IMG/VR virus record: IMGVR_UViG_3300037512_001384
Coordinates: 6,442-70,441 of that record
Origin: a virus
Direction: 5' to 3' (one strand)
DNA: 64,000 nt
Below the pieces are notes generated by a model that ran no database searches, was not told where the DNA came from, and was given only the letters and a program-made list of their open reading frames with translations. Of the stretch, positions 29,594 through 47,483 are shown one piece after another; the stretch's first letter is position 1; every line of letters starts with the position of its first letter. A program made the position numbers and the translations under genes.

Positions 29594-29844
29594 AGTTACT
29601 TCTCAATTAGTTAAGTTACTACCCTGTTAATTACTGACCGCCTGCACCGTATGAGCCTTGAAGTGGAATAATGCATCTGCAGGTGTCATAGGAATCGGGG
29701 TTGAAAGTATTTCCTCCTTACCCCGGCGGTACACCCTCCATTGGGTGTACTTCTTCTGGGTTGTTTTCTCTTCTTTCATTGCGAATCATTTTAGTTAGAC
29801 ATAATGGCGATTATAGCTGCGTTTCCACAGCTATAACCTTCTTG

Positions 29845-30435: not shown

Positions 30436-30497
30436 AATTGATGTTTTTTAGGTTAAACGTGGTTCCCTGCAAGCATTTCCGTACTTGCAGGAATAAA

Positions 30498-30977
30498 TCA
30501 CCAATGATTCGCAGTACGTATGTGTTTCATTGTGAATGTAGCGGTCTCTAATGAGCCCTTGAACTTGATGCGGGTAAAGAATGTCACACCCAATTCTCCT
30601 GTGTTGGACAGTTCAGTCTCGACCTTTGTGATTTTGGATGTGTGATTCTTTCCGTCATCAGGGCAATACCATTTGACGGTATCGTTGATGCTGTAGGGAA
30701 TGACAATCAATCCGTTCGGTTTCTCACCCAGATCCACGAAGAAATCAGTCCATCGGTCGTGGCAATTTGCGTTCTTTTCAGGAAGGTATGGCCAGGCGTG
30801 ACTTGCATTCATCTTGTCATTGGTTATAAACCCACAGTCATATTTGCCGGGAGTATAGTTCTCCTTCTGTGAGTAGGCGGGCTCAAAATCACATAGGTAA
30901 ATCCGTCCTTTGCGATAGTAACCCTTGATGTCCTGTTTGCACAAAAACATGTGCCCTTTAATAATCCTCGGTTCCAT
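30498..30977 (-). CDS. hypothetical protein (array gene)
   Basis: 159-aa ORF with the conserved upstream element. Confidence 0.5.
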   Translation of the reverse strand: MEPRIIKGHMFLCKQDIKGYYRKGRIYLCDFEPAYSQKENYTPGKYDCGFITNDKMNASHAWPYLPEKNANCHDRWTDFFVDLGEKPNGLIVIPYSINDTVKWYCPDDGKNHTSKITKVETELSNTGELGVTFFTRIKFKGSLETATFTMKHIRTANHW

Positions 30978-31203
30978 TGTAGTATGATTTAAGAGTTAAA
31001 CAATTGTTGCCGTCACAAAAACTTTCATATCTTTGTGACGTGGAAACTAAAACGGATGTTCAGTCCGTATGTCGGGACTTACCTAAACCCAAGACTTATA
31101 GTCAGGGTGAAGTGCCACACTCTCAGGGAAATTGTAATGCGCATAATTACAATATTTAAAGAGTTAGTTTCCGTCCTCAGCTTAGGGCGCATGAGGGGCC
31201 TAA

Positions 31204-31238
31204 ATGGATGTCTCGCTGGCATCCATTCTTTTTTTATG
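31204..31238 (+). terminator. hairpin + T-run (plus-strand-oriented terminator-like structure inside the minus-strand array)
   Basis: ATGGATG...CATCCAT stem followed by TCTTTTTTT. Confidence 0.35.
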
Positions 31239-31665
31239 ACCTGATTACACGGGCGTAGGAGTGAGTCGGATAGAATATTTCCTCTGCATTCCATGCGCTC
31301 GCCAAATCGTGCAAGTCCTCGAAGCAATCCACGTAATCCGAACCGGCATCGTACATCTCCAATATCTCCTTGTCGGATATTTCATTAAACTCTTTCTCGT
31401 CAAGGATGTCAGCATTGCTATCCAAGATATAGATGCGCTCACGAGATAATGGTTCCTTCATCAGACAACAGAGTAATGCGTCATTGAGCAGATTGGGGAG
31501 TTCTTCCTCGAAATAACCATCCGCGTAATTATCGATTACCTTTCCCTTGAGATTGCAGATGTCAAGGCGGTACGTGTTGTCTTCAGCTTTGACGCTTAGC
31601 TTATAACCGCGTTCTTTTAATTGTTCGTTGGCGAACTTCAGCAGTTTCTTGTTTTCTTTTTCCAT
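31234..31665 (-). CDS. hypothetical protein (array gene)
   Basis: 143-aa ORF with the conserved upstream element. Confidence 0.5.
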   Translation of the reverse strand: MEKENKKLLKFANEQLKERGYKLSVKAEDNTYRLDICNLKGKVIDNYADGYFEEELPNLLNDALLCCLMKEPLSRERIYILDSNADILDEKEFNEISDKEILEMYDAGSDYVDCFEDLHDLASAWNAEEIFYPTHSYARVIRS

Positions 31666-31730
31666 AATAGTGTAGTGTTAGAGTTAAACAATAGCTGATG
31701 CTGTCAGTGTCATCCGGCAGCATCGTAGAT

Positions 31731-32030
31731 TCATATCCAGCTCACGAAGTCAATCTCCGTCTCTTCAGTGATGTTGATAGGCTCTTCGGTGACAATCGTA
31801 CCGCAGAAGTTGACCATGATACCGGCACCTTCCTTCTGAACTGTTACGGGTGTACTCCAGTCCCCGTCATCATTGTGTCTGGTGTGATACATGTGTTTGC
31901 CTTCGGGGATTGAGTTCGGATCAAGGCGCATTCCGTCAAAGAACTGCACTTCCCGGTTCTTATCTTCTCCTACTACATGAATCTCCAGCTTGTCGCAGTA
32001 ATCGAGATGTTCGTTGTAATTGTAAAGCAT
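31731..32030 (-). CDS. hypothetical protein (array gene)
   Basis: 99-aa ORF with the conserved upstream element. Confidence 0.5.
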   Translation of the reverse strand: MLYNYNEHLDYCDKLEIHVVGEDKNREVQFFDGMRLDPNSIPEGKHMYHTRHNDDGDWSTPVTVQKEGAGIMVNFCGTIVTEEPINITEETEIDFVSWI

Positions 32031-32094
32031 AATAATATAATTTTGAGTTAAACATATTTGCTTTGGTGTCGAATATCACTCCGACACCAAACAA

Positions 32095-32706
32095 TCAGAA
32101 CGGAAGAGGAATGTCCTCGATGATTTCATTCATAACCTCTTTCTCGAACTTCTCCAACTCCTCGATGTAGTCATAGTTGCCTTCGTCTTCATCCTTGCCG
32201 CCCAACCTCTTCTCAAATTCAACAGCTTTCTTGATGAAGTAAGCGGCTTTATCTCTGGAATCCAACCAAGGGTAACTTCCGCTTTTCTCAATCTTGGCGA
32301 TGTCTTCAGCGAGGTCTGCTACCAGATGTACGGCATTCTCCATCTCCTTGTAGGTGTATGTACGCACTTCGTCTTCTCCCTTGACCTCTATCTCAGGCAG
32401 ATAATCCATGATAAAATCAATGTGCGAATAGTGTACATCACCGAGTCCAATCTCAATGTCTGACACAGAACCGTCATGCAGATTGACTGACATACGGATG
32501 TTACCTTTGGACTCCACCCATATTTTCATCACATCTACGTCGCCTACATACTCGCAATCGTCAATGCTGGCTGTTATGATGGGGTATTCTATACCGGAAT
32601 CCTTCCATGTAAAACTGCCTCCCAGCTTTTCCAGGCACTTGCGCAATTCCCTTTGTTCCTTTACGGCTATTTCAGCATACGCTTTGTAAAATGATTCATG
32701 TTTCAT
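32095..32706 (-). CDS. hypothetical protein (array gene)
   Basis: 203-aa ORF with the conserved upstream element. Confidence 0.5.
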   Translation of the reverse strand: MKHESFYKAYAEIAVKEQRELRKCLEKLGGSFTWKDSGIEYPIITASIDDCEYVGDVDVMKIWVESKGNIRMSVNLHDGSVSDIEIGLGDVHYSHIDFIMDYLPEIEVKGEDEVRTYTYKEMENAVHLVADLAEDIAKIEKSGSYPWLDSRDKAAYFIKKAVEFEKRLGGKDEDEGNYDYIEELEKFEKEVMNEIIEDIPLPF

Positions 32707-32749
32707 AATTGTAGTTTTAAGAGTTAGTTACATGGTGGAGAGATGCATT

Positions 32750-33250
32750 TTACTGCATCATCTCCTTCGGTATCAGACAGGTTGGGTTATCATTGATGTA
32801 TCTTATGATTCGCTCTATTGTAACCCAGCCGAGGCTTGCCACTCGGTCATGCCAATCATCTGCATCATCCGGATTATCCGTGTATATTATGCCCGGATTG
32901 ACGTAGTGGTAGCACATAAGATGCTCAGAGCCGTCATTTTCTTTCCGTATGTAGATACAACGGATAGAACGGTGGGTAAATTCATCTTCGAGAAGGTCAT
33001 AAACGTTATCGTCAATGTCACTCATGGAGATTTCAGGATTGACGAGACTCTTCATCTTGATAACTTCACATCCGGCTCTCTCATTGAAGGACAATACGTG
33101 AGTTGCCTCTGCTCCGTCCAAATCCAATCCGAACTCCTTGATGTCACCGGGCGTGGGCTTATGTCCTTTCTCGCGAACATACTCCATGAGTTGTTTAACC
33201 ACCTCATCCGCAGCTCTGTTCATTGATGTCATTAAGTCACTTGCTTTCAT
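32750..33250 (-). CDS. hypothetical protein (array gene)
   Basis: Start MKASDLMTS placed at the conserved upstream element (track extends to 33337). Confidence 0.45.
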   Translation of the reverse strand: MKASDLMTSMNRAADEVVKQLMEYVREKGHKPTPGDIKEFGLDLDGAEATHVLSFNERAGCEVIKMKSLVNPEISMSDIDDNVYDLLEDEFTHRSIRCIYIRKENDGSEHLMCYHYVNPGIIYTDNPDDADDWHDRVASLGWVTIERIIRYINDNPTCLIPKEMMQ

Positions 33251-33308
33251 AATCGTATTTATTTGAGTTAAGTTGTATCCTTGCGCCCGGTTAAGAGCGC
33301 ATGGATAG

Positions 33309-33854
33309 TCAGATCTCGTAGAAGGGAATCTGGTCATCGGCTGTCATCCTTCCTGTAAGCAGTTGGAAGAAGACCGTCTCATAACGTCTATGCTCAGGAC
33401 CTTCGGAATTTCTCATACAATCGAAGTATTTCTCCATTGCGGCTCGTCTGGTCATTACCTCTGTGTCGTTGTAGCAGATGACAGTTACCTGCTCTTCGAG
33501 TTTACTTTCAGCTAAACCGCTGAGAGCAGATGCTTTTGGTTCACTGAGTTCCTTGTCAAGCGTAGCCCATACGTCTATGAGAGATTCACCGAGATAGTTT
33601 AGAAGGCTGTCGCCAATCACCCATTCGGTCTCCTTGCCGGATACTTCCGTAGATACCTCGAATCGTAGTTCTCCGTCAGAATCAGCCATAACGGAATGAC
33701 ACAATTCCTTGGCGCATACCTCACCTTCAAGGAAGAAGATTTGTACGGGCTTCTTGAACTTATGGCAAACTCCCATACCCAGGCGGTTGAGCATATCACT
33801 AATCATCTGGCGTTTGGCGGCCTCAATCATCGTTTCATAAACTTGTCTTTGCAT
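33309..33854 (-). CDS. hypothetical protein (array gene)
   Basis: 181-aa ORF with the conserved upstream element. Confidence 0.5.
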   Translation of the reverse strand: MQRQVYETMIEAAKRQMISDMLNRLGMGVCHKFKKPVQIFFLEGEVCAKELCHSVMADSDGELRFEVSTEVSGKETEWVIGDSLLNYLGESLIDVWATLDKELSEPKASALSGLAESKLEEQVTVICYNDTEVMTRRAAMEKYFDCMRNSEGPEHRRYETVFFQLLTGRMTADDQIPFYEI

Positions 33855-33919
33855 AATTGTAGAGTATTTGAGTTAAACAATTGGTATGTGGCAAGGAAGC
33901 TGCTCGTTGCCACACTGAC

Positions 33920-34126
33920 TTACTTGACCTCATAGTAATCGTCGGGATAACGGCTCATATAGTTGCGAATATCCTCCTCTGTCCAATCATCGGTCATACA
34001 TCCTTTACCCTGAACGTTGGTCCTATATTTGGCTATTACCTTGCCTTTCTCATATACCCTGATGGTGTAAGTCCTGTCATGGTGGTTAGCCTTGATTCTG
34101 TAATTTCTGTCTTTTCTGTTGTACAT
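33920..34126 (-). CDS. hypothetical protein (array gene)
   Basis: Start MYNRKDRNYRI placed at the upstream element. Confidence 0.4.
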   Translation of the reverse strand: MYNRKDRNYRIKANHHDRTYTIRVYEKGKVIAKYRTNVQGKGCMTDDWTEEDIRNYMSRYPDDYYEVK

Positions 34127-34187
34127 AGTTTCGGTTTTAGTTGAACATAGTGACCATTCTATTGTTTCCAATAAAATGGTCCGGGTG

Positions 34188-34544
34188 CTAACTTACATAG
34201 TTACCGCAAGGGGTATCTGTTGTAACGTTGGCAAAACTAAGACGATAATCGGCTGGCTTGCCGTCAAAATACGTGTTGATAGTCTCAAGGATTTCTTCCT
34301 CAGAATGGTCATCCTGATATTGGCTGAAATCGCAGTAGCTGTCATCTACATAGTCTTTGTTCTCTGACATGTGGCGTACAAAATCCTCCAATTTCTCGAT
34401 GAAGAAATCGCACTCCATATTGGCCCAGTAATCCTCATTGTGGTAGATGTAACCGAAGATATGGATAAACTTTACTCCATGCTCTTCATAAATCTGGAAG
34501 AAGTCCAATTCTTCCGGTTTGGTTAATTTCTCGAATTTCTGCAT
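34188..34544 (-). CDS. hypothetical protein (array gene)
   Basis: Start MQKFEKL placed at the upstream element. Confidence 0.45.
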   Translation of the reverse strand: MQKFEKLTKPEELDFFQIYEEHGVKFIHIFGYIYHNEDYWANMECDFFIEKLEDFVRHMSENKDYVDDSYCDFSQYQDDHSEEEILETINTYFDGKPADYRLSFANVTTDTPCGNYVS

Positions 34545-34603
34545 AGCTGTACGTTTTGAGTTAATGGCATCTCCTGTCGGTGTCGCCCGGCAGAAGATGA
34601 TAG

Positions 34604-34834
34604 TCACTTGATCCAATAGAAGGATGCACGTTTGCCTACGATAGCCACCGCGTCAGTTACAAGCCCTCTCGCGTTGCTGATGTCATAGACTTGTCCGAGA
34701 CGCGATTCATACCTCTCGCTCTTGTTGGCTATGAATGTCTCCCAGTACATCTTGTCGATGACCAGCAATCCAAGGTCCATCAGATCTTTTGCGCTACCCG
34801 CAAGATGCAGGTCTTTCTTTGTCAGTTTCTCCAT
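34604..34834 (-). CDS. hypothetical protein (array gene)
   Basis: 76-aa ORF with the upstream element. Confidence 0.4.
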   Translation of the reverse strand: MEKLTKKDLHLAGSAKDLMDLGLLVIDKMYWETFIANKSERYESRLGQVYDISNARGLVTDAVAIVGKRASFYWIK

Positions 34835-34885
34835 AATCTTTTGTTTTGAGTTGGTGGACAGGCGAATGTTATTCCGCCTTATCCT

Positions 34886-35083
34886 TCAGGCGACAATCTC
34901 CAGCTCGTGAGGGAACGCCTCTAAGTCTGAATACTCGTCGGAGCACTGCACAAAATCGCCCTTGAGATTGTCAATGGTGAAGATGCGCGACAAGTCACGG
35001 TTCTCAATGTCAGGATCGTAGAATCTTACCTTAGCGCCAACAGACAATTCCTTTCCGTTGATGTCATACATTTTCTCTTCCAT
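34886..35083 (-). CDS. hypothetical protein (array gene)
   Basis: 65-aa ORF with the upstream element. Confidence 0.4.
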   Translation of the reverse strand: MEEKMYDINGKELSVGAKVRFYDPDIENRDLSRIFTIDNLKGDFVQCSDEYSDLEAFPHELEIVA

Positions 35084-35265
35084 AATTTAGAGTTTAAGAG
35101 TTAGTAGCTCCGTAACCGTCCGTCAAGACCGCTACGGAAATAGTTACGGGCGATAGAAGAAGCGGTGGTCCATTGATACCATGATAACTGAACCGTTGCT
35201 CTGCTCGTGCTCAAAAAAATCCTGATGCAGATATTCTTTGTTAATCTGCTTGCCTCGGAGTTCCG

Positions 35266-36039
35266 TCATGCCGCAATTTTTGAGAAGTGAATCTCTTCCA
35301 GCCTGTACGGTGTGCCGAAGTTGCCCCATGAGCTTGTCTTTACCTCGTACATGATGTGATACATGCCGTTCTTGCTCCGTTCATACTTGTAGCCTATTAT
35401 CGTTCCCTCTGTACGTTCATCAGCGTGACGGTAAAGTTTGACGTAGCATTTCTTGCCAATCTCAAAGCCGGATGCAGGGCGCAAATCTTCAGCGACCAGG
35501 CTCCCGTCCCAAGCTCCAAGATCAACCTTTTCCCATCCCTCACGGAACGCTTTCGGCATACGCTCGATGGTGTCGAACTTGATGTCTTCGGTGGAGGTGA
35601 TGAGCTTGTCCTTGCGGAGCTGCACGAGAAGATTGTTATATACATACTGCTGAATCTCTGTCGGAGCTTTGCAAGCCTCCTTATAGACGGCATAATACTG
35701 AGATGCTATCTGTCTGTTCTCGGAGAGATACTTCAGGTTCTGTCCGAAAGTCAGACCACCCAGATAATCATCGTTGACACGTGACGGATGCGAGTAGTTG
35801 CAGCCCCAATTCTGATAGTGGGATTCCCTGCGGTTCTCCGCATCCCATCTCTTCTTGAGTTCAGGGCGAAAGTCATGCCTCTCGCCATACTTGTCCACGT
35901 CATACTTGGGATAGGTGTATTCAAAATCGCCTACTTTCACTCTGACGCATTCGGTCTCGTGATTCCAATCGTCCTTGACGGTGATGTCCTCGCTCGTTCC
36001 TTTGTCGAGATAATCGAGGATGTTTTCTTTCTTTGCCAT
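35266..36039 (-). CDS. hypothetical protein (array gene)
   Basis: Start MAKKENILDY placed at the upstream element; 258 aa. Confidence 0.5.
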   Translation of the reverse strand: MAKKENILDYLDKGTSEDITVKDDWNHETECVRVKVGDFEYTYPKYDVDKYGERHDFRPELKKRWDAENRRESHYQNWGCNYSHPSRVNDDYLGGLTFGQNLKYLSENRQIASQYYAVYKEACKAPTEIQQYVYNNLLVQLRKDKLITSTEDIKFDTIERMPKAFREGWEKVDLGAWDGSLVAEDLRPASGFEIGKKCYVKLYRHADERTEGTIIGYKYERSKNGMYHIMYEVKTSSWGNFGTPYRLEEIHFSKIAA

Positions 36040-36103
36040 AGTTGTAGTCTTAAGTTGGTTAAACAATATGGCTCCAAGGGAAGATTCTACTCTTCCCTCA
36101 GAT

Positions 36104-36349
36104 TCAGAGCGCCCAGAAGATTTCCTCTTCGTCATCAAAATCCTCCGGGGCCCAATCGGAATCGTATCCCTTTTCGTCTGCAAAATCCGATATAAGTTCG
36201 ATAATAGCATCAATGATTTTACTTCCGTCATGGGTCATACGTAGAGGGCAGCGTTTGTGATCAACATCCACTAAAGCACGCCCTTCTTCCTCTTCTGTCC
36301 ACGTCTTATTGTCGCGGATGTACTGCAACAATTCATCTTTCAGCTCCAT
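36104..36349 (-). CDS. hypothetical acidic protein (array gene)
   Basis: 81-aa ORF. Confidence 0.4.
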   Translation of the reverse strand: MELKDELLQYIRDNKTWTEEEEGRALVDVDHKRCPLRMTHDGSKIIDAIIELISDFADEKGYDSDWAPEDFDDEEEIFWAL

Positions 36350-36361
36350 ATCCGTAAAAGT

Positions 36362-36538
36362 TTAGATGATTCCATTCTCGCGAAATTCGCGTGTCAGTCC
36401 GAATCGTCTGGCCAGCTTTGCGAAGAAGTTGCCGAAATAAGCCAACTCCGAATAGGAGTAGTTGTGGTTTGCAAAATCATACTGCCAGTCGATAGCTTTC
36501 TCTCTGGCGGCAGCTTTTCTTTTCTGATAATCTGTCAT
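36362..36538 (-). CDS. hypothetical small protein (array gene)
   Basis: Start MTDYQKRKAAAREK placed at the upstream element. Confidence 0.3.
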   Translation of the reverse strand: MTDYQKRKAAAREKAIDWQYDFANHNYSYSELAYFGNFFAKLARRFGLTREFRENGII

Positions 36539-36597
36539 AGTCGTGTAGTTTTGGTTAATGGCGCACCATACCGATGTCATCCGATATGATGCATGAC

Positions 36598-36729
36598 TCA
36601 CCGCGTGGGCTGCTTGTGACGTTTCATATCTTCCGCGTGCCAGCATATCTGACATACACCGCCATAGCGGATATACTGCAAATCGGATATCTCCTTTCCG
36701 CAGTTCAGGCATTTGCAAGGTTTACTCAT
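36598..36729 (-). CDS. small zinc-ribbon protein (43 aa)
   Basis: MSKPCKCLNCGKEISDLQYIRYGGVCQICWH with two CxxC pairs; not in the ORF track. Confidence 0.3.
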   Translation of the reverse strand: MSKPCKCLNCGKEISDLQYIRYGGVCQICWHAEDMKRHKQPTR

Positions 36730-37073
36730 GGCTGTGGCTTGCAGTAGATACACTTCACTTCATAATGCTGGCGTGTGAAGAGTTTGAGCAGTGCGTCCGA
36801 ACCCTTGTATGCCATATTCAGCTTAATCTCGTTGATTGTATCTTTCCCGAAGAAATCACTCCCCGAACGCAGGATATTGTTCACGTGATCCTTGTCGGCA
36901 AGGAAGGAATAGAGAGTGCATCGCCACGAACCATCCTCGTTCTGTACTCTATGTACAAAAGCGGCCAGCGCGTTACACTCGTAGATTCCGATAGTGAAAT
37001 CCACATACTTGTCACCCTGTTTCTGCGTGAGCTTGACCTCACCCATCTGATGATTGTACTTTACTTCTAACAT
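36726..37073 (-). CDS. hypothetical protein (array gene)
   Basis: Start MLEVKYNHQMG placed at the upstream element. Confidence 0.45.
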   Translation of the reverse strand: MLEVKYNHQMGEVKLTQKQGDKYVDFTIGIYECNALAAFVHRVQNEDGSWRCTLYSFLADKDHVNNILRSGSDFFGKDTINEIKLNMAYKGSDALLKLFTRQHYEVKCIYCKPQP

Positions 37074-37139
37074 AGTCGTAATATTTTGGTTAAACAATTT
37101 GCGCCCAGAGCGGATGTCATTCCGCTCCAGACTGAAAGG

Positions 37140-37925
37140 TTAATCGCGCTTTACGGCAATAACATCTTCGCAACCCATATCACTCACGCGGAGTCTGATT
37201 CTGAGCAATTTGTATGCTCTGCTGGGAAGGAGGTCATACTCCTCTTCGTTTACGTCCTCCTGATAGGCTACAAGATTATATCTACCGTTTGCGTTGGCGT
37301 TGAAAGCCAGCATGTCGCAGTTATCGGCATCATAGGCGAAACCGATACCCTTCTCTTGTGCGTTCTTCCAAGCATCCTCTACCGCTTTCAGCGCCTCCTT
37401 CTGCTCGTCTGTCAGCATGACCTTACGGACAACTCCTTCATGGACTTTCTCGTTGCCCTCTTCATCGACATACTTGAATGAAGACATTCCGGCACAAATT
37501 TCCTTGTCGATGTAGTAGTCATCGGGGAGGGAATCAGCCTTGAAGTCCCATACATCAGAGGCATTGATATGTCCTTCTATCGTCTGGAAGTCAAACTCAT
37601 GCTCAACTGGCTGGCCGTTCTCTGATGTGAAGTAACGCCATTCGTTATTGAGATTGAGCTGATAAGGCGACAGGGTGTCGGGAGATGCAGGTATATTCTC
37701 GGTGTACGCTTTCATGTTGGGATAGAGCTGGGTATAGTGAATCTTCATGTTTTCACTATCCTTGTCTGTCCTGACGATGAGATGAATGTCATTGTGGATA
37801 GGGTTGCCGTTCTCGTCCTCTTTCTTTGTGAGAATCTGACCGACAACTTGCACCTTACGCAGAGCGCCACCTGTGAATACGAATCCTTCTTTCAGATACA
37901 CACAATAAATGTTTGAATGTGTCAT
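37140..37925 (-). CDS. hypothetical protein (array gene)
   Basis: 261-aa ORF with the upstream element. Confidence 0.5.
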   Translation of the reverse strand: MTHSNIYCVYLKEGFVFTGGALRKVQVVGQILTKKEDENGNPIHNDIHLIVRTDKDSENMKIHYTQLYPNMKAYTENIPASPDTLSPYQLNLNNEWRYFTSENGQPVEHEFDFQTIEGHINASDVWDFKADSLPDDYYIDKEICAGMSSFKYVDEEGNEKVHEGVVRKVMLTDEQKEALKAVEDAWKNAQEKGIGFAYDADNCDMLAFNANANGRYNLVAYQEDVNEEEYDLLPSRAYKLLRIRLRVSDMGCEDVIAVKRD

Positions 37926-38012
37926 AGTTGTAATTTTTTAGAGTTAAACATAATGGTTGCTCCCGCCTGAGTTTTCATACCCAGGCAGGATGATTTGAGT
38001 TTGAACGAATGT

Positions 38013-38246
38013 TCAATAATCCACCTTAATCCCGCATCTCCTGACAACATCCTCTTGCGAACGATGAACCCAGCAGGGATATTTATCACCCTCAGTCCAC
38101 ATTATCAATTCGCCATCGTGCATAGTTCGTTTGTAATCAATATAATGAGCCCTTATAGCTTCTATATGTAACCCATTTTTTTGCAATACCTCAAGAACCT
38201 CATGCACAGAGTTCCTTCGCGTCTCGATGTAATATAGATTATTCAT
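38013..38246 (-). CDS. hypothetical protein (array gene)
   Basis: 77-aa ORF. Confidence 0.4.
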   Translation of the reverse strand: MNNLYYIETRRNSVHEVLEVLQKNGLHIEAIRAHYIDYKRTMHDGELIMWTEGDKYPCWVHRSQEDVVRRCGIKVDY

Positions 38247-38297
38247 AATTATAAGTTTTGGTTTGCGGATTCGGGGATGTCGTTCCCCGGAATCCTG

Positions 38298-38759
38298 TCA
38301 TGCCGCCATCTTCTCCCATTCCTCAATCTGCTCGTATGTCAGCCATTCGGGTTTGAGGTCTTCGGGTATCTTGTTCCAATACTCCTTGACGGCGGCAATA
38401 GTGTCGCGGATGCTACCGCCTATAAAATGCTCATTATGATAGCGGCAGTCCCATTTGTCGTTATCCTCGTTGCCTGACTTGCCGAAATATGCGGCTGCGT
38501 CATCGCTGAGGCGGCTCAGCATCATGTACTCGAACTGAAATCCTTTCATCCTCCGTTCTTTGTCCGTCAGAGGATTGGTGATTTCAAAGTTCTCGATACA
38601 AACATCCGGCTCTCCGTCTTGTTCCGTAGGAGGACACAGGCGGTAAAGTGCATTTGGATTGTCGTTGTTGCAGTCCACGTAATACCTGCCATATTCGTCC
38701 TTATACAGAGTTCCTTCCATTCGGTGCTCTCCGATTCTCGTCACTTTGATTTTTTCCAT
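38298..38759 (-). CDS. hypothetical protein (array gene)
   Basis: 153-aa ORF. Confidence 0.45.
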   Translation of the reverse strand: MEKIKVTRIGEHRMEGTLYKDEYGRYYVDCNNDNPNALYRLCPPTEQDGEPDVCIENFEITNPLTDKERRMKGFQFEYMMLSRLSDDAAAYFGKSGNEDNDKWDCRYHNEHFIGGSIRDTIAAVKEYWNKIPEDLKPEWLTYEQIEEWEKMAA

Positions 38760-38944
38760 ATCAGATACAGTTTTCTTAATAATCCATAGACTTGCATTCT
38801 CATTAGATTTTCAAGGCGGTAACGCTCCATGTAGTTAAAGGCGTATGACTTAGCCGTCATGTAGCCGCATCGTCTGTAACGTCTGCCTATACATCTGAGG
38901 AATGCTTTGAACATCACGGGTGAACACGTTGTTTTTTCTTCCAT
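38741..38944 (-). CDS. hypothetical protein (array gene)
   Basis: 67-aa ORF with the upstream element. Confidence 0.35.
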   Translation of the reverse strand: MEEKTTCSPVMFKAFLRCIGRRYRRCGYMTAKSYAFNYMERYRLENLMRMQVYGLLRKLYLIWKKSK

Positions 38945-39004
38945 AGTCTGTAATTTATAGTTAAACAGTTCCGCATGGAGATTTTGCTCTCCACGCAGAT
39001 AATG

Positions 39005-39997
39005 TCACGCATCGGCCCAGTAAGTCCAAGTGTGGATCTTGCTCACCCCGTAGCGGTTGAGGTAGGCGTCGAGACGTTTGCGGAACTTCTCCAGCCCGAA
39101 CTTCAGACCGTCAAGGATGAGGGCGCGTTCCTCCTTGCTCGCCTCATGGCCTTCGTTGTTGTACCACGACCTGCCGATAAGGAAATCGAGCTTGTTCTTG
39201 TAACCTGTCTCAGCGATACGCAGTGTCTCACCCTTCTCGATGCTCTCAATGGAGCGAGTGAAGGCGCTTTCGTTCTGCTGGATGAAATACTGACGGAGTT
39301 TACTCTCGTCTTTCATCAGCTCGCAATAGAACTTATAGTCCGGTCCTTCGTCATGGAAGCAGAAGCGGTTGTCTATTGACGGCTTGGTTATCAAGTAGAA
39401 ATGTCCGTCAATCTTCACCGCTCCGACACATCCCTTGCTGTAGTAGTCGCGGTCTGACTTGTCATCTTTGCACTCGGTGTCAAGAAACTCGCTGAGCCAC
39501 GTGATGAACTTCTCGTCCTTCTTGGCAGTCTTCTCGACCTTGGCGGTAATATGTGATGCTCCGCCTCCGATGAACGCCTCCACAGCCTCGCGCTTGTCGT
39601 TATTGAACAGCCAGCCCGCTCCGCAGGAGAGGAACTTGTTGAACTTCCAAGCCCCGAGTTTCTTCAGCTGCTCGCGGTAAGTGAACGTGTCACCCACAAC
39701 CGCGAAGCATTTCTCTGAATATTCTACGATTCTCAGGTCAGGCCCGTCGGTTTTCAGAGCCGCCTTGATGTCGTTGAAATCCTCCTCACCCAGCCAATCC
39801 GAACAGGAGAGGCCGTCAGGGAAATCCTCGGTGTCCTGAATCATAAACTCCGGATCGCTCTCGTTCTTGTGCAGTTCTTTGCACTTCGAGATAAACGCAT
39901 TGTAGTTCTCACAATCCGCGAGAGAAACCCATCCGCCCGCGATGCTGCCGTTGTTGTACTTACCCCAAGTACCGACATAAACTTTTGGATTACACAT
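39005..39997 (-). CDS. ardA: ArdA-like anti-restriction protein (N-terminal ArdA domain + C-terminal extension)
   Basis: N-terminus KVYVGTWGKYNNGSIAGGWVSLADCENYNAFISKCKELHKNESDPEFMIQDTEDF matches the ArdA family start (VYVg..a.YN.G.L.G.W..L...e...); 330 aa with the upstream element. Confidence 0.6.
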   Translation of the reverse strand: MCNPKVYVGTWGKYNNGSIAGGWVSLADCENYNAFISKCKELHKNESDPEFMIQDTEDFPDGLSCSDWLGEEDFNDIKAALKTDGPDLRIVEYSEKCFAVVGDTFTYREQLKKLGAWKFNKFLSCGAGWLFNNDKREAVEAFIGGGASHITAKVEKTAKKDEKFITWLSEFLDTECKDDKSDRDYYSKGCVGAVKIDGHFYLITKPSIDNRFCFHDEGPDYKFYCELMKDESKLRQYFIQQNESAFTRSIESIEKGETLRIAETGYKNKLDFLIGRSWYNNEGHEASKEERALILDGLKFGLEKFRKRLDAYLNRYGVSKIHTWTYWADA

Positions 39998-40058
39998 AGT
40001 TGTAGAATTTAAGGTTAAACATAGTGGCGGTTACGGGAGATTCCGCTCTCCCATAACC

Positions 40059-40319
40059 TTAACATTCGCCAAGCGGCTTAAGTCCGACATACTGATATTC
40101 TGCGTCGCCTGTTCCGTTTTTCTTGAAAGTCTGATAGAGTGCGCAATTGCGATTCCAATCGTGAGAATACGCCTCGCCCGGCTGGAAGATTCCTCTTTCC
40201 CAAGTTGCAGGCGGTAACGCACCGCACAGTTCCCAGAACACTTCGTTTGATATGAACTGACCGACTTTGACGTTCAGAGTCTTATCTTTCTCCCATTGCT
40301 CCATTGTGTAGATATCCAT
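40059..40319 (-). CDS. hypothetical protein (array gene)
   Basis: Start MDIYTMEQWEK placed at the upstream element. Confidence 0.4.
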   Translation of the reverse strand: MDIYTMEQWEKDKTLNVKVGQFISNEVFWELCGALPPATWERGIFQPGEAYSHDWNRNCALYQTFKKNGTGDAEYQYVGLKPLGEC

Positions 40320-40469
40320 AATCGTAGAATTAAGAGTTAAACAATAGCACCCCAGAGAATATTTCCTATTCCCTGAGATTTGACGTGTAAGGAAATTTCT
40401 CATACCCTCGTGAGAAAATCTACCGCTGAGAGGGAGAAAATCGTTTGTAGGGCAAAAATTGCGGGAAAT

Positions 40470-40917
40470 TCACGCTGATTCCTCCATATCCAACTCTCCG
40501 AGACAATAGAGGGCGAAGTTCTCAGCCGTATCCTTCGCCTCATCCCATCCGATAGCCTCACCGAATCCGTCCGCGTATTGGCTGACCTCCTTCGCCTCCA
40601 CTCCGAGAGTGTTCTTGTAGTCACTGACGTAGCACGAGCCGAGGCAAATCTGACCGCGCAGTTTCTTCAGTTCATTGTAGCACAGGTCATCCACGTGTCG
40701 CCACGGCTGCAAATCGGTCGGATCACAGAGGAATGTCTGTCCGTCCGAATCCACGACATAGACGTTCACTAATTTCGGGGTTTGGTCAATCTCCTTCTTG
40801 GTGGGCTGGTTCTCATTGCACAGGTCAAGAATCTCGTCAATAGTGACAACCTCCTTGAACCAAGTATGGAAAACCTTCTTCCCTGACTTTACGAATCTTG
40901 AGTATTTCATAATCATA
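40470..40917 (-). CDS. hypothetical protein (array gene)
   Basis: Start MIMKYSRFVK placed at the upstream element. Confidence 0.45.
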
Positions 40918-40971
40918 GAATTTGAGTTAAACTTGGTTTCCGGAACCGCTCTCGCACGATTCCGGAATGAT

Positions 40972-41361
40972 TCATACATACTGCTCGATGCTCTCAGCGA
41001 TAGAGCCCAGCGTCTCATAGCACAGGTAATCTCCGTCACCGAAGGCGAACCAATCGGGATCCCACGTGGAATCGTTGGCGTCAAACACCTCGCCCGGCTC
41101 GTTGAGGTTTATCTTGTCGGTGTTAGGGAGAATCTGCAGGGTGTCGTTCTTGACGCGCACCGCGATGACCTCATAGGGGAACATAATGTCCAAGCTGCCG
41201 TCAGAGCAGAACCTGTACGTCCAGATGTTGTCCGTTGCTCCGTCTTCCTTCACGTGGGTGTCTATGTATCCTTTCTCGCCCTGATGCAGACGGATGAAAT
41301 TCTTCACAACTTCCTCCAGCGCCTTGGTGCCGTGGAACATCAAATCCTTAAGTATTTCCAT
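40972..41361 (-). CDS. hypothetical protein (array gene)
   Basis: 129-aa ORF with the upstream element. Confidence 0.45.
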   Translation of the reverse strand: MEILKDLMFHGTKALEEVVKNFIRLHQGEKGYIDTHVKEDGATDNIWTYRFCSDGSLDIMFPYEVIAVRVKNDTLQILPNTDKINLNEPGEVFDANDSTWDPDWFAFGDGDYLCYETLGSIAESIEQYV

Positions 41362-41464
41362 ATCGTTTCAATTTTAGGTTAAACATAGTAGGCGCAGCCG
41401 GATTCCATCCCGCTGCACCCGAAAAACACTTAAATACACAACTAAGATTGTTGTTATCCTTTCG

Positions 41465-41785
41465 TCACGCAGGGACGGCCGGTTCGTACTCCAGCTCGCA
41501 GCTGCCGATTCCCTCGTCATAGAGTTTCAGCTCGGGAGCGCAGCACGAGATGACATCCGTTCCCTCATAGAAGAAACACGTCTTCTTGGACATCCCCACG
41601 ATGATTTTCTCACGCGCCCACTCAAGGTTGCGCTTGTTGAGGAAATCACGTTTGTATCGCTGGCAGATATAGAGAGTAAGCGCATAATAGGCGGAATATT
41701 TGCCCTCATACGTGGCCAGCTCCTCTATCTCGCCATTCTCGTGAATGACATTGATGACATTCAGGTTCTTGTTGGTCCTTCTCAT
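41465..41785 (-). CDS. hypothetical protein (array gene)
   Basis: 106-aa ORF. Confidence 0.4.
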   Translation of the reverse strand: MRRTNKNLNVINVIHENGEIEELATYEGKYSAYYALTLYICQRYKRDFLNKRNLEWAREKIIVGMSKKTCFFYEGTDVISCCAPELKLYDEGIGSCELEYEPAVPA

Positions 41786-41849
41786 AATCGTAGCATTAAA
41801 GAGTTATTCGCTCCGACAGGAGTTATCTCTCCTCCTGCCGGAAATAGTG

Positions 41850-42149
41850 TCAGTTGCCGATGACGAATCCGTAGCGTTTCCACATCTCCATACCGGTTTC
41901 CTTGTATTCGGCGTCCTTGTCCCAATTCTCGGGAATCCACACGTCAATGCCGAAGTCGCTGTCCTCTATGTATTCCCTCGGAATACCCAGGTCCTGACAT
42001 AGCATCTGCACGTCAGATAATGTCGGTACGTTACAGCCTCCGTAGATGCATACTTCTCCTTCTGTTTCCCAATCCTCGGTTGAATAGCCGAAATCGTGGT
42101 TCTGGGCTATATGCTCGATACCCCAGCATAATACTTCAATTTTCTTCAT
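41850..42149 (-). CDS. hypothetical protein (array gene)
   Basis: 99-aa ORF with the upstream element. Confidence 0.4.
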   Translation of the reverse strand: MKKIEVLCWGIEHIAQNHDFGYSTEDWETEGEVCIYGGCNVPTLSDVQMLCQDLGIPREYIEDSDFGIDVWIPENWDKDAEYKETGMEMWKRYGFVIGN

Positions 42150-42211
42150 AGTTGTATAGTTTAAGAGTTGGTTGGCGCGTCAGGGAATTTCCGTATTCCC
42201 TGACACAAAAG

Positions 42212-42874
42212 TCACGCTGCGTCCGGCTCGCATATACCACGGAACAGCGTTCCGTCCTCGCAGTAGATCTCGTCCTCGTCAATCAGCAGCTCCTCGCGGA
42301 CGTACTCGTCACTTCCTCCGGATTCCATATCATCCCGCCTTTCCTTGAAGAAACTGTCCAGGCAGTCATCCACCAAATCATACAGGGATTTGTTGTAGTC
42401 GGGTTTCCTGAACCATTCATAGACAGGATGCAGGATGAAGTTGTCACCGCAGAATCCGGTGAGCGGACAGTCGTAGTCCACGAGCAGGATCTTGGAGTTC
42501 TTGCTCTTGCCGTACACCCACTTGCCGTCCTCTCCGAGATGTCCTTTCGCGGAGATATATTTCCCTTTGAATACGTACTTGTGGATGTCACGCATAAAAC
42601 GCGCCAGATATTTTCCTGTCACGTCCTCCGCGTCTCTCTCATAGACGTCATTCTTGAAACGGAACCGGTAATCGTAGGAACAGGAATCCACCTCCCAGTG
42701 TCTCACGTCAATACCGAACAGCTCGCAGAACTCTTTCAGCGAGTCGCGGTATTCCGATTCCCAGGCGTCTATGTGTAACCGCTGTATGTCGTCACGCTCG
42801 CGGTCAATGACTTTCTTCTGAGCCTCTTCGCTCAGCTCCTCAAACTTGTAGAGCTTACATTTCACTTCTCTCAT
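42212..42874 (-). CDS. hypothetical protein (array gene)
   Basis: 220-aa ORF with the upstream element. Confidence 0.5.
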   Translation of the reverse strand: MREVKCKLYKFEELSEEAQKKVIDRERDDIQRLHIDAWESEYRDSLKEFCELFGIDVRHWEVDSCSYDYRFRFKNDVYERDAEDVTGKYLARFMRDIHKYVFKGKYISAKGHLGEDGKWVYGKSKNSKILLVDYDCPLTGFCGDNFILHPVYEWFRKPDYNKSLYDLVDDCLDSFFKERRDDMESGGSDEYVREELLIDEDEIYCEDGTLFRGICEPDAA

Positions 42875-42914
42875 TGTCGTAGTATTTAAGTATGGTTTAT
42901 CGTACTCCGGTAGT

Positions 42915-43230
42915 CCGTCAGGACAGCCGGAATCATTTTCACGCAGCGGAGTATGATTTATCGTACTTTCCGAACTGTCCGTACATCGTCAGGTTCTTTC
43001 CCGTACTCTTGGCGGTCAGCTCATAACTCCTGTTGCGGATTCTCCTGTAGATTCTCGTCTTCATAATCGTAGTATTTTAGAGTTGGTGATAATCGTACTG
43101 CGTAGGGTTTCCGTACTCTCCGTCAGTTTTCGTACTGCGGATAATTATCGTACTATCCGCAGTTATGGCCGCGAATCGCTTTGTCTGTCATCCGCGTGAC
43201 GTATCCTCAGCCGTTGGTTTACGTACTGAT
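42915..43230. repeat. cluster of 8 direct CGTACT-core repeats (TTATCGTACTnnCCG-like)
   Basis: Copies read at ~42921, 42981, 43022, 43113, 43142, 43150, 43161 and 43222. Confidence 0.5.
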
Positions 43231-43239
43231 TCCGCGTTC

Positions 43240-43380
43240 TCAGGACAGACCTTCAAGCAATCCGCAAAGGAGTATGAACAGGACACAGCCGGACATCGTG
43301 ACGATGATCCCGCCTATCGTGTAGTCCTCATCGAGCCAGTGCACTTTCTTGCACAGCAAATCCAAAATCTTCTCTTTCAT
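43240..43380 (-). CDS. small membrane protein (46 aa; array gene)
   Basis: MKEKILDLL...GIIVTMSGCVLFILLCGLL with the upstream element. Confidence 0.3.
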   Translation of the reverse strand: MKEKILDLLCKKVHWLDEDYTIGGIIVTMSGCVLFILLCGLLEGLS

Positions 43381-43411
43381 AATCGTAGTATCTATAGAGT
43401 TGTAGTTTCCG

Positions 43412-43768
43412 TCACGCATTTCCCATACGTGACAGAATGACCACGCGGTCCTGTTCCGGCAGTGTCGGGAGGATCGCGAAGAACAGCTTCTTGGCGGATG
43501 TGAAATCCACTCCGTTCTCCGCCAGAAATTCCTTTGACCATCGGTACTGCGCCATATCTTTCTTAAGGGCGCAGAAGTCAAACATAAAATCAAAGACTTT
43601 CATCGATACCTTGCGGGCCTCCGGTGTCTGCATCCATTCGGCCGATTTCAGGTATTCGGGAAAGTCACGTCCGTAAACCTTGAGGTTGCGGACGTCACGA
43701 GGGAGCTGCATCATATAATCCCAGGCACGCTGGCGCTCATACTCCCGTCTTTCCTTGTCTGCGTTCAT
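43412..43768 (-). CDS. hypothetical protein (array gene)
   Basis: 118-aa ORF. Confidence 0.45.
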   Translation of the reverse strand: MNADKERREYERQRAWDYMMQLPRDVRNLKVYGRDFPEYLKSAEWMQTPEARKVSMKVFDFMFDFCALKKDMAQYRWSKEFLAENGVDFTSAKKLFFAILPTLPEQDRVVILSRMGNA

Positions 43769-44473
43769 AGTTCAAGAGAATCTTCTGCGCACAGACATTC
43801 GATCATCTCCTCCGCTCCCAGTCTTTCAAGCAGCTTGGAGGATAACCTGATAAATTCTTTCATAGTTGCGCGTATTTAAGGTTAAACAATATTCGTAAGC
43901 GGACCGGCAATCTTTCAGCCGTTCCGCCCTGTCCTGTGTCTTTCATCTCTCAGGCGTTTTCCAATAGATTCTAAGTTTAACCATAACTCTGAATCCCACA
44001 GCTCCGGCCTACCGGAGATTCCAGCGGAATTATTCTCAGGCGGAAAAGGGAAATAAATTCCGGTCCGCGAGGAAAGCCCAGGGATTCGCGTAACGATACG
44101 CAAATCCGCATAATCCGCTGATTAGGGATGATGTTCAACGCTGCCGTATAATCCGCGCTCCGATTACTCACTGTTTCGGCTTTCATCTTTCACTACTTGC
44201 CTATATCACTTTCAAACGGAGTGCGCCCTGATCCTGCACGCAGCGCAAAAGCACCGGTACAGGACCGCACGGGAACAGCGCCCGCTATCCGCCAGCTCTT
44301 TGCAGAACAGCCGGAAATATTCGCGTCCAATATGTCAATGTACGTTTTATTAACTTGCACCCTTCACGGAATCCAACCGCGCCCAGATAAGCAGCTCACC
44401 TGGGTTGCAAAAAGGGTATGATCCAAGCGCCCACCTGATAGGCAAATCCTTTCAGATAGGCACAAAAAAGATA

Positions 44474-44500
44474 GGCGGCGGAAAGTATCCGCCACCTATC
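44474..44500 (-). terminator. candidate terminator for the first array gene
   Basis: GGCGG...CCGCC hairpin followed, on the minus strand, by a U-run (tatcttttttgtg). Confidence 0.35.
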
Positions 44501-44515
44501 AAACAGGGTTAAAAT

Positions 44516-45100
44516 TTAATCAACTTTGCAAACTCTTGTAAAACCAAATTTTGCCAACAGTTCAGGAGTTAAAAGACTTGCGTCTATTCCAAGACTTGCG
44601 GCCAGACTTGCGGACGCTCTTTGCAATTGCTTTTCATTTGCCTGCTTGCGTGCAGTCCGTGCAACTTCATCCCTGAATATATCGTAACTATTAAAACAAG
44701 TACGGAGGCCAGCGGCCGAAATTGTAGTTTTACGGTATGGAGTTAAACCGCTTTCCGTATTTCCTATTGTGTTTGTATCCGCTTCACTTTGAAAAGTGAT
44801 TGTAAAGTTGTTTGTTGCTTTCCTCACTTTTGCAAACACCCTCAAAAACAGATATTTTTCTGTTGCCATAAAAGGAGCGGAACGGAAAGAATCCGCAAAA
44901 CAAGCGGATAATTTATTAAGGTTTTCGGCCTCAATACTTGCGTTTTCGTTGTCAATACTTGCAAGTAGTTTGCTAATTGTGGTTTTACTTGCGTTTGCTT
45001 TTCTCAATTCCTTAACTGAAATACTTGTTACCAGTGTTTCAAGTTCAACGGTTGAAATACCTGAATAAAGGTAATCAACAAGATTTTTGTTTACTTGCAT
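44516..45100 (-). CDS. hypothetical protein (first gene of the minus-strand array, next to the origin-like region)
   Basis: 194-aa ORF with the upstream element. Confidence 0.5.
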   Translation of the reverse strand: MQVNKNLVDYLYSGISTVELETLVTSISVKELRKANASKTTISKLLASIDNENASIEAENLNKLSACFADSFRSAPFMATEKYLFLRVFAKVRKATNNFTITFQSEADTNTIGNTESGLTPYRKTTISAAGLRTCFNSYDIFRDEVARTARKQANEKQLQRASASLAASLGIDASLLTPELLAKFGFTRVCKVD

Positions 45101-45180
45101 AGTTGTAATATTTAAGAGTTAATAAAATAGTGTCAAAGTGCGCATATCGGAAACACCTTTCCGACACTATAAAATTACAA

Positions 45181-45370
45181 AAATAATCCGATATAATGCC
45201 AATATTTGTATATTTAACTTATGTTTAATTGATTGATATATAGTAAGTTATAAAGAAAGATTATACAATATTGTAGTATATATACAGGTTATTATTGTAT
45301 ATATACATAGATAGTTAATTATATAATAACTTAAATATATAGATATTTAACGGAAAAATACTTACAAATT
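45181..45370. other. ~80% AT stretch with TATATA-type repeats (candidate DNA-unwinding element of an origin)
   Basis: Base composition read directly; ORF-free. Confidence 0.45.
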
Positions 45371-46013: not shown

Positions 46014-47483
46014 TTGTTTTTATATATGGGTAAAGGTACACAAAACAACAATTTCACGCTTATTGAAGACCTTAGTAAGCTGATTTACAACTCGCTGAAC
46101 AAAGCTCCGTTGAAGGAGTCCTATAAGCTGTATTCATCGGGTGACAGGGTATATGTCTATCAGGAGGTCATCCTTGATGCCTGCAGCAAGTGTTTCCGGT
46201 CTTACATGGGTGATGTATATTACTTCGACGGCAGGATATGGTGTCCTCTGGCTGATATTGTGCTTGAGACTGCGTTGAGCAAGGCGTTGGTGCAGGGAGG
46301 AGCGCGTAAGTCGGATATCGTGAATGCCAGGAGCAAGATTCTGTATTCGGCACGTGGCGGTGCGTCGATGTCACCGTTGGAGTTGCGTGCGTCGGTCATC
46401 GGATTCCGTAACGGCGTATGGGATTTCACTGACATAGACAACCCGGTCTATCACTCTTTTGCCGAGCGTATGCCTGTGGTGCGGATACTCCCTTACGACT
46501 ATGACCCTGATGCGGGCTGTCCGAAGTGGCAGGCGTTCCTGCAGTCCATCTTGCCGAAGGGTGAGATAATGAAGCTCCAGAAGTACCTCGGTCTCGGCTG
46601 TGCTGACCGTAAGAGCATGACGCATAAGATTGAAGAGACGCTGTGGCTCATCGGGTCGGGTGCCAACGGCAAGTCCACCATCTTCGACGTGGTACGCGGG
46701 GTGTACGGTGCGGATAACATCAGCTATGTGGGTCTCGATACGCTGCTTAGCGGCTCGTCGGACGTGCGTGCGCGGTTCATCGGGAGCATCGTGGGTAAGA
46801 TCTTCAACTACTGCTCGGAGATACAGGCGGATGACATATCACGTTACGCCGATACCTTCAAGTCCCTCTGTTCGGGTGAGCCGCAGACCGTGAGAAGGTT
46901 GGGTCAGAACCCCGAGACCACCTTCGACATACCGTTCCTTGTGTTCAACATGAACCAGAAGCCCACGAACCGGCGTATGGACCAGGCTCTCGTGCGCCGT
47001 CTGCTCTTCATACCTTTCAAGACCACCGTCTCTGCCGCCGACATGAACCGTGAGCTCTCGTCGGAGCTGCTGAAGGAGCTGCCGGGTATCCGCAACTGGA
47101 TGATAGAGGGCTATAAGATGCTCATACGTGACGGCTATCAGTTCAACACCACCAAAGCCGCCGATGATGAGATGACCGACTACATGCTGGAGAACGGTCA
47201 GACGGTGCAGGTGTTCCTACAGAAGAAGGGCTACTCATGTAACAGGCGCACGGGACACTGGGAGGACCGTATCCAGTGGGTTCCTGCGTCCGCTCTCTAT
47301 GAGGACTATGTGTCGTTCTGCGAGAAGTGGCTGCAGGATCCTGTCAAGCAGCGTGCTTTCGGCAGTGAGATGGCACGTCTCGGATGGCATGAGACGGGAG
47401 GGAACCGCAAACGTACCGGCACGGGTTACGCCTACGGCATCTTCTGCGAGAAGGATATCGATTACGCAAAAAATAACATCTGA
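46014..47483 (+). CDS. P4/D5-family SF3 helicase (phage/plasmid primase C-terminal domain + D5_N-like)
   Basis: NGVWDFTDIDN...CPKWQAFLQSIL...LWLIGSGANGKST (Walker A)...FNMNQKPT...RRLLFIPF. Confidence 0.75.
   Translation: MFLYMGKGTQNNNFTLIEDLSKLIYNSLNKAPLKESYKLYSSGDRVYVYQEVILDACSKCFRSYMGDVYYFDGRIWCPLADIVLETALSKALVQGGARKSDIVNARSKILYSARGGASMSPLELRASVIGFRNGVWDFTDIDNPVYHSFAERMPVVRILPYDYDPDAGCPKWQAFLQSILPKGEIMKLQKYLGLGCADRKSMTHKIEETLWLIGSGANGKSTIFDVVRGVYGADNISYVGLDTLLSGSSDVRARFIGSIVGKIFNYCSEIQADDISRYADTFKSLCSGEPQTVRRLGQNPETTFDIPFLVFNMNQKPTNRRMDQALVRRLLFIPFKTTVSAADMNRELSSELLKELPGIRNWMIEGYKMLIRDGYQFNTTKAADDEMTDYMLENGQTVQVFLQKKGYSCNRRTGHWEDRIQWVPASALYEDYVSFCEKWLQDPVKQRAFGSEMARLGWHETGGNRKRTGTGYAYGIFCEKDIDYAKNNI

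Follow-up and report, generated by a model that had tools for sequence, protein, structure and literature searches.

An ArdA domain 1 fragment on a phage protein built around an unnamed domain family

Is a phage gene whose product begins like the anti-restriction protein ArdA an ArdA gene with something added, or a different gene that carries a piece of ArdA? The question is raised by a locus in a 64,000-nucleotide (nt) stretch of viral DNA (IMG/VR record IMGVR_UViG_3300037512_001384, positions 6,442 to 70,441), which was analysed as a whole and is referred to here as the window. A preliminary description of the window, made from the sequence alone, placed an open reading frame (ORF) of 330 amino acids (aa) at positions 39005-39997 and described its product as an ArdA-like protein with a ~200-aa C-terminal extension. 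Here, we find that the protein almost certainly consists of three modules, N, M and C, with ArdA homology confined to N, which corresponds to ArdA domain 1. What is new is the recruitment of an ArdA domain 1 fragment onto an unnamed, structurally unmatched family of phage domains. We describe the evidence for this architecture, the functions that it may serve, and the surroundings of the gene.

The gene and the extent of its ArdA homology

The ORF was found where the preliminary description placed it, on the minus strand; that description gave no strand, and the peptide it quoted (KVYVGTWGKYNNGS...IQDTEDF) corresponds to residues 5-58.

39005..39997, minus strand: ORF with ATG start, 330 aa and TGA stop (39005-39007), with full-length homologues

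The plus-strand frame over the same positions is riddled with stop codons. In a collection of 5.8 billion proteins, 455 match the 330-aa protein; every one of the best 120 is full length, with 317-366 aa, 45-88% identity and a coverage of 98% or more, and conserved positions are spread over the entire sequence. We regard the gene as real because of these 455 relatives, the top 120 being full length, and because its ATG abuts an element common to neighbouring genes (see below). A curated phage collection contained no DNA or protein match to the gene or its product.

The N-terminal resemblance to ArdA is clear. The Pfam ArdA family (PF07275) matches residues 6-65 with E=1.7e-10 and 42.2 bits against a cutoff of 27, the aligned part being positions 1-60 of the 155 in the profile, and it is the sole Pfam domain in all of the best 120 of the 455 relatives. 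PHROG 2059 (“anti-restriction protein”) matches residues 4-74 (E=1.6e-9), and an Enterobacter plasmid ArdA aligns with residues 3-64 at 48% identity over 62 residues (E=6e-21). These three matches bear out the earlier claim that the first ~60 residues are ArdA-like, and the profile match runs to residue 65, past the ~30 residues that the preliminary description had set as the least for an ArdA assignment.

Beyond this region the resemblance ends. A tblastn search of 72,556 plasmids matched 4,974 records, none covering 80% of the query, and its best alignment, to an ArdA, spans residues 3-147 at 34% identity. Homology as far as residue 147 was rejected, since dissection of that alignment puts all of the significant signal in residues 3-64. 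Residues 66-330 compared with ArdA by BLASTP gave E values of 0.3-0.5, which are not significant; hidden Markov models (HMMs) of the M and C families scored below zero on ArdA; and an NCBIfam search with the whole protein returned nothing.

Where the homology stops can be read against the structure of Tn916 ArdA, in which domain 1 comprises residues 3-61, domain 2 (a four-helix bundle) residues 62-103, and domain 3 residues 104-165 (PMC2731889). Domains 2 and 3 together provide methyltransferase binding, the dimer interface, both functional motifs and most of the acidic charge (PMC2731889). Domain 3 holds the dimer interface, the VF motif and the anti-restriction motif (Tn916 residues 126-140), all of them required for activity (PMC2731889). 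Domain 1 can be removed with no loss of anti-restriction (McMahon et al., PMC2731889).

In the window protein, domain 1 is recognizable from its Pfam and BLAST homology and from a modelled beta-alpha-beta-alpha-beta fold with a predicted local distance difference test (pLDDT) score >90. Domain 2 has no counterpart: the Pfam alignment stops at profile position 60 and is followed by one helix (residues 71-82) and then a beta-rich module. Nor was a domain 3, with its dimer interface, anti-restriction motif and VF motif, found in the 330-aa protein. Summed over its 330 aa, the protein has a net charge of −9 (N −8, M +2, C −2) versus −30 over 166 aa in a plasmid ArdA; by this measure the strongly acidic extended surface of a ~42-bp DNA mimic is missing, and with it the charge that DNA mimicry requires.

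Judged from its sequence, the protein thus keeps the dispensable domain 1 of ArdA and is without the essential domains 2 and 3. To call it an ArdA with an extension is therefore inaccurate on two counts: the part unlike ArdA is ~265 aa long (residues 66-330), and it replaces domains 2-3. The protein is very probably unable to act as ArdA does, that is, as a 42-bp-long acidic dimer filling the DNA groove of a type I methyltransferase. Because the working parts of ArdA are absent, the automatic label “antirestriction protein ArdA” is misleading for the window protein and its relatives.

ArdA proteins (PF07275; Tn916 Orf18, PDB 2W82; ColIb-P9; pKM101) share with the window protein a homologous domain 1 bearing the motifs VYVGTY.KYN.G...G.W and H..E.DPE.M.QD, a similar domain 1 charge (−8 here, −9 there) and residence on mobile genetic elements. 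The window protein differs in having no domain 2 or 3, in being twice as long, in carrying two unrelated additional modules, and in belonging to a Bacteroidales phage rather than to the leading region of a plasmid or an integrative and conjugative element. The chromosomal ArdA of B. bifidum is likewise an overlong ArdA-related protein, in which a second role is suspected for a distinct C-terminal part (PMC10746416). However, that ArdA is complete and active (Met1-Gly240 being sufficient for anti-restriction) and disorder is predicted for its C-terminal part, whereas the window protein has only domain 1, and its C module is well folded in the model and widely conserved.

Three modules and a family defined by C

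Structure prediction with AlphaFold2, using a 121-sequence alignment, gave a full-length model (pLDDT 89.9, predicted template modelling score (pTM) 0.76) in which three modules are folded and one linker is disordered, in keeping with the earlier idea that the protein has more than one part. The modules are as follows.

39752..39997, minus strand: module N, residues 1-82; ArdA domain 1 (Pfam part 39803-39982) plus helix 71-82; acidic, net charge −8
39560..39736, minus strand: module M, residues 88-146; small, basic, predicted beta-beta-alpha-beta-beta-alpha; YSEKxFAVxGDT..K..LKKLG....W.F
39527..39559, minus strand: linker, residues 147-157; predicted disordered, pLDDT <50 at 148-157
39008..39526, minus strand: module C, residues 158-330; unnamed family-defining domain, ~170 aa

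Module N is predicted to fold as beta-alpha-beta-alpha-beta followed by the helix, with pLDDT >90 in the AlphaFold2 model, and in a Foldseek search of viral predicted structures (BFVD) it matches phage proteins annotated as “antirestriction”. Module C, when modelled alone, gave a pLDDT of 95.4 and a pTM of 0.88. Its predicted fold opens with two helices at the N-terminal end, includes a three-stranded meander and a long helical hairpin, and closes with a strand that the conserved ...HTWTYW tail forms; the hairpin is modelled with helices of 24 and 29 residues and a variable beta-hairpin at the tip. Neither a fold match nor a sequence match to C was found in the PDB. Matches to influenza haemagglutinin (E=0.006) and HSF1 (E=0.17) in the PDB were set aside as chance, being non-significant, implausible and absent from the fold search. 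DUF6370 (E=0.054) was rejected as sub-threshold, as was the ClpC M-domain (E=0.04), a match that reflects the coiled-coil hairpin.

Among 1.84 billion cluster representatives, a phmmer search with C alone returned 553 clusters (50% identity) at E≤1e-3, 105 of them at ≤1e-10, and C lies at the C-terminus in all matches. The domain architectures of the 150 best representatives were assigned from HMM matches of at least 20 bits, with a variant of M found in relatives (M', motif LKxxGFRWxxxxKxWY) recognized by a regular expression for its sequence motif. The census gave the following counts.

C alone: 93 of 150, median length ~185 aa
N+M+C: 17 of 150
M+C: 14 of 150
M'+C: 11 of 150
N+C: 11 of 150
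M+N+C: 4 of 150

The permuted order M+N+C is well supported, each domain scoring 69-131 bits, and some N+C relatives reach ArdA profile positions 104-119. One apparent case of N inserted within C (P0163) was rejected, as it relied on a match of only 11.8 bits; this protein is M'+C. Pfam finds ArdA in 31 of the 150 representatives and no family over C. The PHROG families matched by C-bearing proteins, besides the ArdA one, are few and small (2-9 of 150), nearly all of unknown function. A profile built from 63 stand-alone C proteins returned 246 proteins, none with a Pfam domain and none named beyond “hypothetical protein”. C is a domain of ~170 residues, found in hundreds of phage protein clusters, that has no Pfam match, no name in its sources and no solved structural relative.

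C is thus the constant core of a family found in phages and metagenomes; in most members it stands alone, and N and M are optional additions, present in either order. Since most of the family has no ArdA part at all, the ArdA piece is an accessory. At the same time, the repeated fusion of N to C, regardless of order, argues for a functional coupling between the two. Here ArdA domain 1 behaves like a module that is both independent and portable, in support of scattered reports that credit it with its own activity.

Three motifs characterize C: KPxIExxFCF, YFxxxN and, at the extreme C-terminus, FxKRLxxYLKRYGxSKxxxWTYWxD. All are present in the window protein, except that K314 is replaced by N. 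Across 135 diverse domains the conserved positions are K205, P206, I208, F212, C213, F214, Y237, F238 and N242, followed by K307, R308, Y312, K314, R315, Y316, G317, K320, W324, T325, Y326, W327 and D329. This pattern of conservation points to an aromatic core set and a lysine/arginine cluster (K205, K307, R308, K314, R315 and K320).

Module M has a net charge of +2 (family mean +3.2) and has no match in Pfam. Foldseek matched it in BFVD over ~58-67 residues, with a root-mean-square deviation of 1.1-1.9 Å and 26-35% identity, to modules in giant-virus and phage proteins, several of them annotated as DNA topoisomerase I or mRNA capping enzyme. M-like modules of ~60 residues were seen in many proteins of Pithovirus, Marseillevirus, Iridovirus and Orpheovirus, topoisomerase I and mRNA capping enzyme included. 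The M-like module is an unnamed small domain common to giant viruses and phages. M and M' share a strand-helix-strand pattern with DUF5710 (PF18974) and with the modules of giant-virus topoisomerase I and capping enzymes. The Pfam match to DUF5710 is sub-threshold and confined to two M' variants of relatives (~13 bits, E ~0.09, versus a gathering score of 26.5 bits); the M of the window protein itself gives no match to that family.

What the protein may do

It is quite possible, if somewhat short of probable, that the protein has a counter-defence or host take-over role of some kind. Such a role is plausible because the gene lies in an array with LPD11 and LPD28, and because relatives lie near genes for ArdC, PcfJ, an orphan methyltransferase and DarA_C. 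The array members with a match are as follows.

38298-38759, minus strand: LPD11, solo gene, E=5.5e-18
31731-32030, minus strand: LPD28, solo gene, E=1.6e-13
42212-42874: array member matching a PHROG of unknown function

Solo LPD domains have been regarded as probable facilitators of the early invasion phase (Iyer et al. 2017, PMC5512222). Relatives of the window protein in IMG/VR sit in similar arrays on phage contigs. One 78-kb contig (L024) is syntenic with the window and has the same LPD11 and LPD28 neighbours. At another locus (L015), an N+C gene of 280 aa has a PcfJ-like gene and an ArdC gene (ArdC-N plus MPTase) at its flanks. M'+C genes are found at two further loci (267 aa in L017, 261 aa in L023) and a C-only gene of 226 aa at a third (L020). 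Neighbours of the other relatives include a Bro-N protein, a helix-turn-helix regulator, an orphan N6/N4 methyltransferase and MazG, as well as DarA_C, FtsK, PAPS reductase and ADP-ribosylglycohydrolase. Phage contigs with C-domain relatives repeatedly carry FtsK-like, PAPS-reductase-like and DarA_C genes. The genome-bin labels of the relatives are Paludibacteraceae, Bacteroidales and Kiritimatiellae, bin assignment of phage contigs being unreliable.

The setting recalls the polyvalent proteins of phages and conjugative elements, among whose domains ArdA was described in association with ArdC-N (Iyer, Burroughs, Anand, de Souza and Aravind 2017, PMC5512222). The likeness lies in the same logic of shuffled modules, in the LPD11 and LPD28 neighbours here, and in the relative beside an ArdC-N plus MPTase protein and PcfJ. 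LPD11 and LPD28 were originally defined from large polyvalent proteins and stand alone in the window array. There are also differences. Polyvalent proteins combine 2-15 conflict-related domains; here, there are three modules in ~330 aa, of which ArdA alone comes from that repertoire, M and C not being among its Pfam models, and no Pfam model, those for LPD included, matches C. In the window, the repertoire is split over solo genes, each with an upstream element. Finally, polyvalent proteins with ArdA come mainly from Firmicutes (PMC5512222), and the window protein comes from a Bacteroidales phage.

In the mechanism that we favor, C would be an effector or scaffold, working through its putative basic K/R cluster and the long helical hairpin predicted in the model, and N and M would be targeting modules. 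N, as an acidic ArdA domain 1, might serve as a small decoy resembling DNA, by which the protein docks on a host DNA-handling protein, candidates being the HsdR motor arm of type I enzymes and a nucleoid protein. M may bind nucleic acid, which is the simplest guess from its basic charge and its likeness to modules on DNA and RNA enzymes. In McMahon's model of ArdA, domain 1 projects past the methyltransferase towards the HsdR subunits (PMC2731889), and the ArdA N-domain alone was reported, according to its citation in PMC12707154, to relieve H-NS repression (Melkina and Zavilgelsky 2021, ref. 463 there).

A more specific version, in which C is a new anti-defence effector fold and N a portable “HsdR-arm” decoy delivering C and M to type I or related translocating restriction complexes, is unlikely on present evidence, and a target that is specifically a restriction-modification system of type I is more doubtful still. 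If that version were true, a fragment of ArdA would have given rise to a second anti-restriction mechanism, distinct from full DNA mimicry, and the stand-alone C proteins would constitute a large unrecognized family of phage counter-defence proteins. Gut Bacteroidales phages have very few known anti-defence proteins; given its fusions to an ArdA fragment and its neighbours (ArdC, DarA_C, LPD domains and an orphan methyltransferase), C is a reasonable candidate for counter-defence screening in these phages.

Several points weigh against a counter-defence role. No known or proven anti-defence protein was identified among the array neighbours in the window. The preliminary description had held that ArdA anchors the array as anti-defence; LPD11 and LPD28 do fit an invasion-phase repertoire, but an ArdA fragment in such company is a weak anchor. 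The context evidence is guilt by association, with arrays made up mostly of unknown genes. No catalytic signature is seen in C, and at K314 (“YLKRYG”), where 96% of members have K, the window protein carries N. As the curated phage collection holds no homologue, there is no cultured-phage phenotype to draw on. H-NS is not known in Bacteroidota, and the H-NS precedent may not transfer. Lastly, topoisomerases, capping enzymes and primase-annotated PHROGs are among the fusion partners of M-like modules, and a role in DNA transactions fits this equally well.

That role is the main rival explanation: the protein would be an accessory of replication, recombination, topology or transcription, with C and M binding phage DNA or RNA or a component of the replisome, and with the acidic ArdA domain 1 serving as an autoinhibitory or handover DNA-like flap. 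We consider it rather unlikely. The fusion partners of M speak for it; on the other hand, the gene lies in the accessory array, outside the replication module (primase-helicase 4237-6150, primase 46014-47483), the family is patchy and absent from related cultured LoVEphage-type phages, unlike a core replication function, and N is otherwise known solely from anti-restriction proteins.

An improbable alternative is that the protein modulates the host nucleoid or transcription, ArdA domain 1 titrating a DNA-binding silencer and C oligomerizing through its helical hairpin. As ~118 of the 150 family members are without N, the family's core function must be a different one, and the silencer of the precedent, H-NS, is not known in Bacteroidota. 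The pair of 24-29-residue helices predicted in C would suit oligomerization, the activity of the ArdA N-domain against H-NS repression has been reported (as cited in PMC12707154, ref. 463), and ArdA proteins have been reported to alter host gene expression (PMC10746416).

The canonical reading, a DNA-mimic dimer seated in the DNA groove of a type I methyltransferase with a second activity added C-terminally, can claim the significant Pfam and PHROG matches, the plasmid tblastn alignment over residues 3-147 and the precedent of an active B. bifidum ArdA with an extra C-terminal domain (PMC10746416), but it is largely refuted already by the sequence and the model, which leaves it very improbable.

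The surrounding array and the phage genome

The gene belongs to a minus-strand array at 29.3-45.1 kb of ~25 small, mostly acidic ORFs, most of them without a database match. Repeat analysis of the array revealed an element that abuts start codons, and hairpin sequences were found at gene borders. Those at the 330-aa ORF are as follows.

39998..40022, minus strand: shared upstream element, in minus-strand sense atGTTTAACCTTAAATTCTACAACT-ATG, abutting the ATG of the 330-aa ORF
40035..40052, minus strand: hairpin GGGAGAGCGGAATCTCCC (core 40036-40051), lying after the stop of the upstream gene (40059-40061) and before the upstream element
38977..38992, minus strand: second exact copy of the hairpin core, GGAGAGCAAAATCTCC, 13 nt past the ORF stop and followed by an element copy and then an ATG at 38944

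About 15 array ORFs (window 29187-45122) have an element of ~30 nt abutting the ATG, with the sense consensus tGTTTAACTCTTAAA-N3-5-TACAAnT-ATG, in short GTTTAACTCTTAAA...ATG. A strict version of the pattern has 7 matches (30975, 33852, 37923, 39995, 41783, 42147 and 45098) versus 0.01 expected; each of the 7 is on the minus strand and has an ORF start codon at its end. A lone plus-strand copy of the element lies at 29187-29215. The element is likely a per-gene promoter or leader of a Bacteroidales phage. A scan for sigma-70 promoters and intrinsic terminators performed no better than on shuffled sequence, as is expected of a Bacteroidales phage.

The exact hairpin core, GGAGAGCRRAATCTCC, lies on both sides of the 330-aa gene, each time preceded by a stop codon and followed by the next element copy; these hairpins could be terminators or the boundaries of gene cassettes. 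A third, looser copy is found at 36080-36095. Between the 330-aa gene and LPD11 there is a 67-aa ORF (38741-38944, minus strand) with its own upstream element, overlapping the start of LPD11 (38759). In the syntenic 78-kb contig, the corresponding two genes are just 63 nt apart. The 67-aa ORF may be an inserted mini-gene, or the start of LPD11 may differ.

The window is from a LoVEphage-like Bacteroidales phage of the gut. Its phage genes include a portal (53591-55348), a large terminase (55360-58152) and a major head protein (59852-61015) and, besides the primase-helicase and primase mentioned above, a DNA methyltransferase and a PAPS-reductase-like protein. The terminases of Bacteroides LoVEphage, Bacteroides phage BI-TP1 and Phocaeicola phage PV4-TP1 share 49% identity with the terminase of the window. 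At 930 aa, this minus-strand gene product is unusually long: the LoVEphage-type terminase aligns at residues 431-909 only, and residues ~66-218 match a PHROG of DnaC-like helicase loaders (AAA-type ATPase). Parabacteroides phages have an equally long terminase, annotated as hypothetical. There are two FtsK/SpoIIIE-like ATPases, at 571-2658 (plus strand) and 27697-29115 (minus strand), the first with an exonuclease-like N-terminal region. A single tRNA-Gln (anticodon TTG) lies at 9293-9364 on the plus strand, within the plus-strand module. GC content changes in steps, from 0.44-0.49 in the array to 0.405 at 44-46 kb and 0.51-0.55 from 46 kb onward, where the primase and structural modules lie; the 44-46 kb segment is an AT-rich divergent intergenic region with palindromes at 45299-45346.
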